Shown in pieces: positions 61,631 through 61,794 of a stretch of 64,000 nucleotides of DNA (position 1 is the stretch's first letter; each line of letters begins with the position of its first letter). Location of the stretch: positions 928,001 to 992,000 of the forward strand of contig CAVTBR010000001.1 in the NCBI GenBank assembly GCA_963733055.1, in the 5' to 3' direction. The position numbers and the translations under genes are program-made. Source of the stretch: Candidatus Bathyarchaeota archaeon. GTDB lineage: Archaea; Thermoproteota; Bathyarchaeia; 40CM-2-53-6. The notes beneath the pieces are model-generated. The model saw only the letters and a list, made by a program, of their open reading frames with translations, was not told the DNA's origin and ran no database searches.

Positions 61631-61794
61631 GCGGGGGTTGCCAAACCTTCAGCGTCGCTGGAGGGGCGAAGCCAGGTCAAAGGCGCGAGACACATCCGAA
61701 CGCATGTGCGCGAAGCTCAGGAACATCAAACGGAGGATGTTAAGAGACCTCGTCCCGTAGGGGTTCAGGGGTTCGAATCCCCTCCCCCGCACCA
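61631..61794 (+). tRNA. tRNA-Leu(CAG) with three BHB introns (61645-61670, 61690-61714, 61722-61746)
   Basis: Spliced product GCGGGGG TT GCCA AGCCAGGTCAA AGGC G CGAGG CTCAGGA CCTCG TCCCGTAGGGGTTC AGGGG TTCGAAT CCCCT CCCCCGC ACCA (88 nt), a full cloverleaf with long variable arm and encoded CCA. Confidence 0.93.

Follow-up and report, generated by a model that had tools for sequence, protein, structure and literature searches.

The window analysed here, 64,000 nt in length, comes from a Candidatus Bathyarchaeota archaeon genome (assembly GCA_963733055.1, contig CAVTBR010000001.1, positions 928,001 to 992,000, forward strand). Close to its right end, on the + strand, lies a tRNA-Leu(CAG) gene interrupted by three introns. 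Exon 1 (61631-61644, 14 nt) encodes tRNA positions 1-14, with the acceptor 5′ strand, U8, the D-stem 5′ strand and A14. Intron 1 (61645-61670, 26 nt) follows at position 14/15. Exon 2 (61671-61689, 19 nt) covers positions 15-30, with the D-loop, the D-stem 3′ strand, position 26 and positions 27-30, and is bordered by intron 2 (61690-61714, 25 nt) at position 30/31. Exon 3 (61715-61721) has only 7 nt, positions 31-37; it includes C32-G37, and with them U33 and the whole anticodon CAG. Intron 3 (61722-61746, 25 nt) sits at the canonical position 37/38. Exon 4 (61747-61794, 48 nt) provides positions 38-76, consisting of the anticodon-stem 3′ strand, a long variable arm, the T arm, the acceptor 3′ strand, A73 and an encoded CCA. 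All four exons are colinear on a single strand and lie within 164 nt, which ruled out a split or permuted tRNA gene. Open reading frames (ORFs) overlapping the locus had no Pfam match, and the gene occupies a gap upstream of a DUF302 gene.

A preliminary description, made from the sequence alone, had proposed a tRNA-Leu(CAG) split by three introns, at about 14/15 and 30/31 and at 37/38, with the whole anticodon in an exon of 7 nt between introns 2 and 3. The sequence does read this way, and the three sites are backed by the spliced cloverleaf, by intron-free orthologues, by covariation and by shuffling. The scan of the spliced form that had been suggested was carried out after removal of the introns in silico. 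It gave an 88-nt product, called by ARAGORN as tRNA-Leu(cag), with a 7-bp acceptor stem, a D arm, a 5-bp anticodon stem, a long variable arm, a T arm, A73 and the encoded CCA. With a probability of about 90%, we take the locus to be a functional, apparently single-copy tRNA-Leu(CAG) gene with three bulge-helix-bulge (BHB) introns, derived from a four-intron ancestor.

Each intron can be drawn as a BHB motif. Intron 1 has the central helix TGCC/GGCG (4/4 pairs), bulges AAA/AAG and an 8-bp intron helix. Intron 2 has CGCG/CGCG (4/4 pairs), bulges AGA/AAG, a 5-bp intron helix and a 2-bp exon helix. For intron 3, the motif consists of CTCA/TAAG, bulges GGA/AGA and a 5-bp intron helix. These parts are as previously written down for all three introns, except that the central helix of intron 3 pairs at only three of its four positions and contains a C34·A mismatch (61716-61719 with 61741-61744; alignment columns 127/154). 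The mismatch was found in 17/17 congeneric genes, though a G in the intron would pair. Intron 3 therefore belongs to the relaxed BHB class, with 3/4 central pairs and a 5-bp helix. In-place shuffling of each intron reached the observed combination of central pairing and intron helix in 1, 1 and 2 of 20,000 shuffles for introns 1, 2 and 3, respectively.

Conservation was followed by a DNA search of 40 related genomes, 22 of them from the same genus. A tRNA-Leu(CAG) orthologue was recovered in 16/22 congeners. No Leu(CAG) orthologue came from the other six (G005, G006, G007, G010, G017 and G020; completeness 67-93%), where the search met paralogues or partial matches only; one of these matches, G017 C4:992100-992228, turned out to be a Leu(TAG) paralogue. 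Together with this genome (G000), the alignment comprised 17 sequences. Exon columns were almost fixed (79/85 invariant, mean pairwise identity 97.7%) and exon 3 was invariant in 17/17 genomes, while intron columns varied (40/118 invariant, identity 72.8%). The specified BHB helices were paired in 90.6% of cells, compared with 37-59% when the 3′ partners were slid by 1-3 columns. Two-sided changes occurred at nine pairs, a level reached by 0/500 shuffles. At 8/9 (an intron position occupied in most congeners), 14/15 and 30/31, 98-100% of central-helix cells pair. At 37/38 the figure is 75%, because of the C34·A mismatch in all 17 genes. Helices that are kept, with loops and bulges free to change, are the pattern expected of spliced introns.

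A check that needs no motif came from outside the genus. In G023 and G024, which represent two sister genera within the same family, tRNA-Leu(CAG) is uninterrupted (L025:1462-1546 and L029:1072-1156). In G024 it is an ordinary Infernal match (54.5 bits, RF00005). These genes are identical to the spliced product at 75/85 positions, and compensatory changes are seen in their anticodon and T stems. An alignment with the precursor opens three gaps, which fall on the predicted introns to within 1-2 nt of sliding ambiguity. That ambiguity has a simple origin: introns 1 and 3 each have three equivalent placements owing to flanking A residues, and the BHB rule selects 14/15 and 37/38 among them.

The same sliding bears on a rival view, which accepts a functional gene but gives one or more inserts other ends, or a route of removal other than the BHB drawn here. 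Intron 3 would be the likeliest case. Besides its three sequence-equivalent placements, which intron 1 shares, it has the poorly paired central helix with the universal mismatch, and both RNAfold and RNAalifold favour another register at this intron, CUC/GAG with an internal loop of 3x2. This alternative register is, however, not conserved. Its 3′ partners vary (AGA, ACA, TGA, AAA) as in an unpaired bulge, whereas the BHB partners are kept. Moreover, every equivalent placement gives the same product, as confirmed by the intron-free orthologues. We consider different intron ends very improbable.

The unspliced gene is hardly visible to tRNA finders. ARAGORN found 0 tRNA genes in the 64-kb window, and no Rfam family matched the unspliced gene at gathering scores. 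At a relaxed Rfam threshold (E up to 10) only T-arm fragments matched, to unrelated families. The earlier remark that standard scanners tend to miss such genes thus holds for both programs. With introns allowed, ARAGORN covered 61413-61794 with a tRNA-Phe(gaa) whose 'intron' measures 289 nt. The call is a false composite that takes in the 3′ exon of the Leu gene, and an annotation trap.

Missing calls by standard finders are what one would also see for a decaying pseudogene, or for an assembly artefact full of insertions, with CUG read by another tRNA. A candidate reader exists, as tRNA-Leu(UAG) is present in the genome and could read CUG by wobble. Against this stand the near-invariant exons, drifting introns and covarying helices of the 17 genomes, the intact stems, the conserved promoter box and encoded CCA, and the recurrence of the same architecture in 17 independent assemblies; most other tRNA genes of this genome also look alike. 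With 79/85 exon columns invariant and all stems intact, the locus lacks the marks of a tRNA pseudogene, and the idea of decay or artefact is close to refuted. The preliminary description had regarded an intact tRNA-Leu(CAG) elsewhere, together with the lack of a spliced product, as the sign of a pseudogene. No second tRNA-Leu(CAG) was detected in the genome by ARAGORN with introns allowed, by a BHB-based census, or by BLAST of the spliced product.

This census had been suggested as a survey of the other tRNAs of the genome, and it showed that the three-intron tRNA-Leu(CAG) is typical of its genome. About 46 tRNA genes are expected. Infernal found only 12-13 in this genome, and ARAGORN with introns allowed gave 33 genes, 4 of them intron-free and several plainly wrong. 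The census followed the logic of SPLITS: a T arm and paired acceptor served as anchor, BHB candidates were enumerated, up to four were removed, the cloverleaf was scored, and ARAGORN confirmed the result. In the final pass, 26 of 64 anchor rows were kept (ARAGORN-confirmed after splicing) and 38 dropped (rows 23, 24, 28-63). Two of the dropped rows, 24 and 29, correspond to Leu(TAG) and Leu(GAG), which were mis-solved in this pass; their earlier-pass solutions were used, and tRNA-Asp(GTC) was added. Relaxed anchors lacking the CCA requirement produced hundreds of spurious 'tRNAs' with long pseudo-introns and were abandoned. Another candidate in the window, at 50972-51064, was rejected since ARAGORN found nothing there before or after splicing.

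As a lower bound, 29 genes with 53 introns were resolved, a mean load of ~1.8 introns per gene in this subset. Three genes had no intron, six had one, 13 had two and seven had three, the last being Lys UUU, Leu UAA, Leu CAG, Leu GAG, Cys GCA, Gly CCC and Gly GCC. Only 13/53 introns were at 37/38, and the median intron length was 22 nt. The combination of 30/31 and 37/38 introns around a 7-nt exon recurs in Lys UUU, Leu UAA and Leu CAA. When all 53 introns were compared all-against-all, no family with at least 80% identity between tRNA types was found. Six pairs reached at least 70% (shuffled: 0 per replicate), the best of them (74%) from the same site of two Leu genes. With no pair at 80% or more and such a top pair, intron transposition or intron families are not claimed.

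Infernal counts in the other genomes were 5-16 tRNAs in the genus and 7-30 in the order's other families; stricter filters and incomplete genomes limit this comparison. From these counts, interrupted tRNA genes would seem to be widespread throughout the order.

Some observations weigh against a functional, single-copy gene spliced as drawn. The central helix of intron 3 is mismatched, and its register is slightly altered in the energy-minimal fold. A listing of sequencing runs showed no RNA run for 61300-62100, which speaks neither for nor against splicing. Because the 17 genomes are closely related, the shuffle statistics overstate their independence. The motif-based census is partly circular, and ~17 of the roughly 46 expected genes lie outside its resolved set. 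The genome is 96% complete in 3 contigs, so a second Leu(CAG) copy is possible. Finally, tRNA-Leu(UAG) might serve CUG by wobble, and a sole CAG copy is therefore no proof of indispensability.

Among relatives, the gene forms a series. Since the sister genera are intron-free, all three or four introns are specific to one genus. Thirteen of the 17 genomes (L003-L005, L007, L009-L017) have four introns, at 8/9, 14/15, 30/31 and 37/38, with internal exons of 6, 19 and 7 nt. The 8/9 intron is absent from this genome and G019, and the 14/15 intron from G021 and G018. In alleles without one of the introns, the joined sequence is exactly as BHB cleavage predicts. Because the four-intron state is seen in both near and distant congeners, we infer that it is ancestral and was followed by two precise losses, a direction that comes from this distribution and not from a rooted tree. 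The gene in the window would then go back to an ancestor with introns at 8/9, 14/15, 30/31 and 37/38, from which the 8/9 intron was lost precisely. Its 5′ leader, described below, would be a relic of the four-intron state.

Genes for the enzymes of such splicing are present. Two genes of the genome (G000:C3:228.6 kb and C1:1338.8 kb) carry both endonuclease domains (PF01974/PF02778). One, a catalytic subunit of 185 aa, has Tyr, His and Lys, which we take to be the endonuclease active-site triad. It matches the Aeropyrum pernix protein 3p1z_B of the Protein Data Bank (PDB) end to end (3.6e-39). Its K39/K41, counted along the alignment, align to K44/R46 of the Crenarchaea-specific loop of A. pernix. 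According to the available parts of the structural study, this loop, and K44 above all, confers cleavage at non-canonical sites (PMC3241643). The 188-aa paralogue has weak PDB matches to structural subunits, the best being 5x89_A and 1a79_A. It could be a structural subunit, a reading prompted by the absence of His at the aligned position. The splicing endonuclease is thus predicted to be a two-gene, alpha2beta2-like enzyme, an arrangement that reviews, in the portions available, associate with intron-rich archaea (PMC4090602). This type, with K39/K41 at the positions of the specificity loop, agrees with the relaxed specificity that had been proposed for the endonuclease of this organism. RtcB is encoded as well (577 bits).

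From these components, a splicing pathway can be outlined. The transcript probably starts ~24 nt upstream of the tRNA, ~25 nt behind a conserved TATA-like box. Each intron would fold locally into a motif whose central helix joins four intron nucleotides to the four exon nucleotides immediately 5′ of the cut; a 3-nt bulge lies on either side, and an intron hairpin closes the structure. The alpha2beta2-type endonuclease is predicted to cut both bulges of each motif, and RtcB to join the exons into the 88-nt tRNA with its encoded CCA. The BHBs of introns 1 and 2 borrow nucleotides from the D stem, and that of intron 2 also from the anticodon stem. Because D-stem and anticodon-stem nucleotides are borrowed in this way, the cloverleaf could form only as the introns leave. 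A free 7-nt anticodon exon would be poorly held if both its flanks were cut before ligation. Cutting and joining at introns 2 and 3 is therefore probably sequential, in either order, with the exon staying covalently held on one side.

It had been proposed that splicing may be ordered, with intron 2 removed first to build the anticodon stem for intron 3. In the obligatory form of this idea, intron 2 (30/31) must leave first so that the anticodon stem presents intron 3 as a full hBHBh′ motif. Intron 3 has indeed only one exon-side pair (G31-C39) before removal of intron 2 and five after it, and the nucleotides C32/U33 are required in two motifs, BHB 2 (exon helix) and BHB 3 (central helix). Closely spaced introns can need one to be removed before the next motif forms, as stated in the available text of the tRNAscan-SE 2.0 paper (PMC8450103). 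In the minimum-energy fold of the full precursor, however, the three intron hairpins coexist. Endonucleases of this kind also cut relaxed motifs that lack one outer helix, according to the accessible sections of two papers (PMC4090602, PMC3241643), and the anticodon stem could form with intron 2 looped out, which would let intron 3 go first. An obligatory order is rather unlikely, and nothing in the sequence forces one. What stands of the proposal is that some kinetic order is plausible, given the nucleotides shared by BHBs 2 and 3 and an anticodon stem that is complete only after intron 2 has gone.

Upstream of the gene, a TATA-like box, TTAGACTTATGT (61573-61584, +), with a presumed promoter role, is located ~50 nt from tRNA position 1. 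The 16 congeneric orthologues have TTAGCTTTATGT at the same distance, and the box is common to all 17 genes. In the intron-free sister genera, a TATA-like box lies nearer to tRNA-Leu(CAG) by ~25 nt, at only ~30 nt upstream. The usual archaeal spacing between TATA box and start would place transcription initiation near -24, which gives a putative transcribed 5′ leader of 24 nt (61607-61630, +), its start predicted from the TATA distance.

The leader has two conserved elements. Its first nucleotides (61607-61614, GTGCGGGA) repeat the acceptor 5′ strand in decayed form and are complementary to the tRNA 3′ end (positions 67-74). In 16/17 genomes the exact sequence GTGCGGGG is found at -24/-25; this genome has GTGCGGGA instead. 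The second element (61623-61627, TGACT) is a decayed complement of the D-loop. Neither is present in the intron-free gene of the sister genera. In RNAalifold predictions for precursors including the leader, an 8-bp helix joins the acceptor copy to the 3′ end, a 7-bp helix joins the second element to the D-loop, and the true acceptor 5′ strand pairs with the 8/9 intron. No covariation of the leader pairing was seen within Leu(CAG), because the leader sequences hardly vary. This genome has one mismatch to the genus consensus in each element, and G019 has one of them. Mismatches after loss of the 8/9 intron fit a relaxed constraint, a reading drawn from one or two events.

A second tRNA served as an independent test and shows a similar arrangement. 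tRNA-Cys(GCA) (G000:C3:162495-162637, L064/L065; L066-L094) is preceded by a copy of its own acceptor strand, GCCGGGG, which was exact in 22/22 genomes that have an insertion behind nucleotide 8; this set spans the genus itself (19 genomes), two sister genera and one other family. The copy is placed 4-13 nt upstream of position 1, with 15 distinct spacers in between. Where the 8/9 insertion is missing, the copy was found in 0/6 genomes, and the TATA box is nearer to the gene. Two further loci of this survey gave no recognisable gene. In this genome, tRNA-Gly(CCC) and tRNA-Leu(GAG) have 8/9 introns but no acceptor copy; the Leu(GAG) leader pairs with its D-loop in the fold. As a genome-wide rule the leader helix was rejected, since only tRNA-Cys(GCA) and tRNA-Leu(CAG) reach 7 bp between leader and 3′ strand.

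A tentative explanation, to which we give slightly less than even odds, is that the leader would serve as a cis folding scaffold for splicing of the intron closest to the 5′ end. An 8/9 intron would force the acceptor 5′ strand into its BHB. The promoter would lie ~12-25 nt further upstream than in intron-free relatives, and the acceptor copy would pair with the orphaned 3′ strand. In Leu, the second element would extend the exon-side helix via the D-loop. The tRNA-Leu(CAG) of this genome would represent the aftermath, in which the leader has outlived the 8/9 intron but has begun to decay. Non-exhaustive keyword searches found no published pairing between a leader and the acceptor strand. The leader is the only part of the system that might be new biology.

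Downstream of the tRNA gene, the neighbours in the window encode a DUF302 protein (61910-62350, +), a SelR/MsrB methionine sulfoxide reductase (62402-62872, -) and a HhH-GPD base-excision repair protein (62875-63540, +). Outside the window, a 32-nt stretch equal to the 3′ end of Leu tRNAs occurs 5 kb downstream of tRNA-Leu(TAG) (G000:C1:1423416-1428638, L063), and a tyrosine recombinase gene (PF00589, 4.2e-14) adjoins this tRNA. This arrangement suggests a small integrated element whose attachment site was duplicated.

Multi-intron tRNA genes are a known kind, described in Thermoproteales and in Asgard archaea; within the literature searched, the lineage is new. A full-text search of open-access and bioRxiv literature found no paper describing tRNA introns in Bathyarchaeia. 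In Thermoproteales, Pyrobaculum islandicum tRNA-Pro(UGG) has introns at 25/26, 37/38 and 56/57, and P. calidifontis has 71 introns in 46 genes, or 1.54 per gene, according to the consulted parts of the source papers (PMC4090602, PMC8450103). The genome studied here resembles these, as far as those parts go, in having up to three short, protein-spliced introns per gene, an alpha2beta2 endonuclease and genes that finders miss. It differs in lineage and in a higher mean load (53 introns in 29 genes of the resolved subset, compared with 1.54 in P. calidifontis). Intron families shared between tRNA types were reported for Thermoproteales in the sections seen (PMC4090602; 10.64898/2026.10.13.758758), whereas none at 80% or more was found here.

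Soil Asgard archaea (Atabeyarchaeia, Freyarchaeia) are closer in several respects. In the available text of the two reports, 92-95% of their tRNA genes bear introns, with up to five inserts per gene (10.1101/2023.11.21.568159, 10.64898/2026.10.13.758758). Shared with them, as described there, are ~90% interrupted genes, mostly non-canonical sites, common occurrence of at least two introns per gene, and a median intron length of ~22 nt (22 here). Few shared intron families and frequent intron gain or loss between close relatives are further likenesses. The load of ~1.8 per gene is near the 2.2 given in the accessible part of the report on the focal Asgard families (10.64898/2026.10.13.758758). 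Unlike them, the present organism belongs to a different phylum-level lineage. The Asgard papers, in the text available, mention Bathyarchaeia 0 times and describe no acceptor copy in a leader. The four introns of the congeners exceed the 'up to three' of the tRNAscan-SE 2.0 paper (PMC8450103) but not the 'up to five' of Asgard archaea (10.64898/2026.10.13.758758), as these portions read. The earlier statement that triple-intron tRNAs are rare and mainly known from Thermoproteales is right about their occurrence there but dated, in view of the 92-95% interrupted Asgard genes in those passages and of at least seven three-intron genes among the 29 resolved here.

Two further systems offer parallels. 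The catalytic subunit aligns end to end with the A. pernix endonuclease (3P1Z), and its K39/K41 fall in the loop described in the available section of that study (PMC3241643). Identity is moderate, and for the enzyme of this archaeon heterotetramer assembly and substrate range are predictions. The split tRNA halves of Nanoarchaeum equitans provide a likeness for the leader: in the part of the source consulted, a flank outside the tRNA pairs with part of the precursor so that a BHB forms and the pieces are held (PMC4033280). Here, by contrast, the gene is colinear and the leader would pair in cis. As a mimic of the acceptor 5′ strand, it would hold the 3′ strand while the true 5′ strand is engaged in the BHB of an 8/9 intron; in the Leu(CAG) gene of the window, moreover, the 8/9 intron has already been lost.

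For these uncultured archaea, standard annotation misses essential tRNA genes: Infernal finds 12-13 of some 46 expected. Taken alone, the tRNA-Leu(CAG) gene adds one case to an archaeal oddity already known, and it becomes more useful among its relatives. There, the same gene with zero, three and four introns, together with two independent precise losses, offers a clean natural series for intron gain and loss. What this locus adds is that series, the two precise losses and a leader that appears tied to 8/9 introns. The occurrence of a leader copy with 8/9 introns in two different tRNAs suggests a simple, testable rule for keeping a precursor spliceable once an intron has entered the region near the acceptor.

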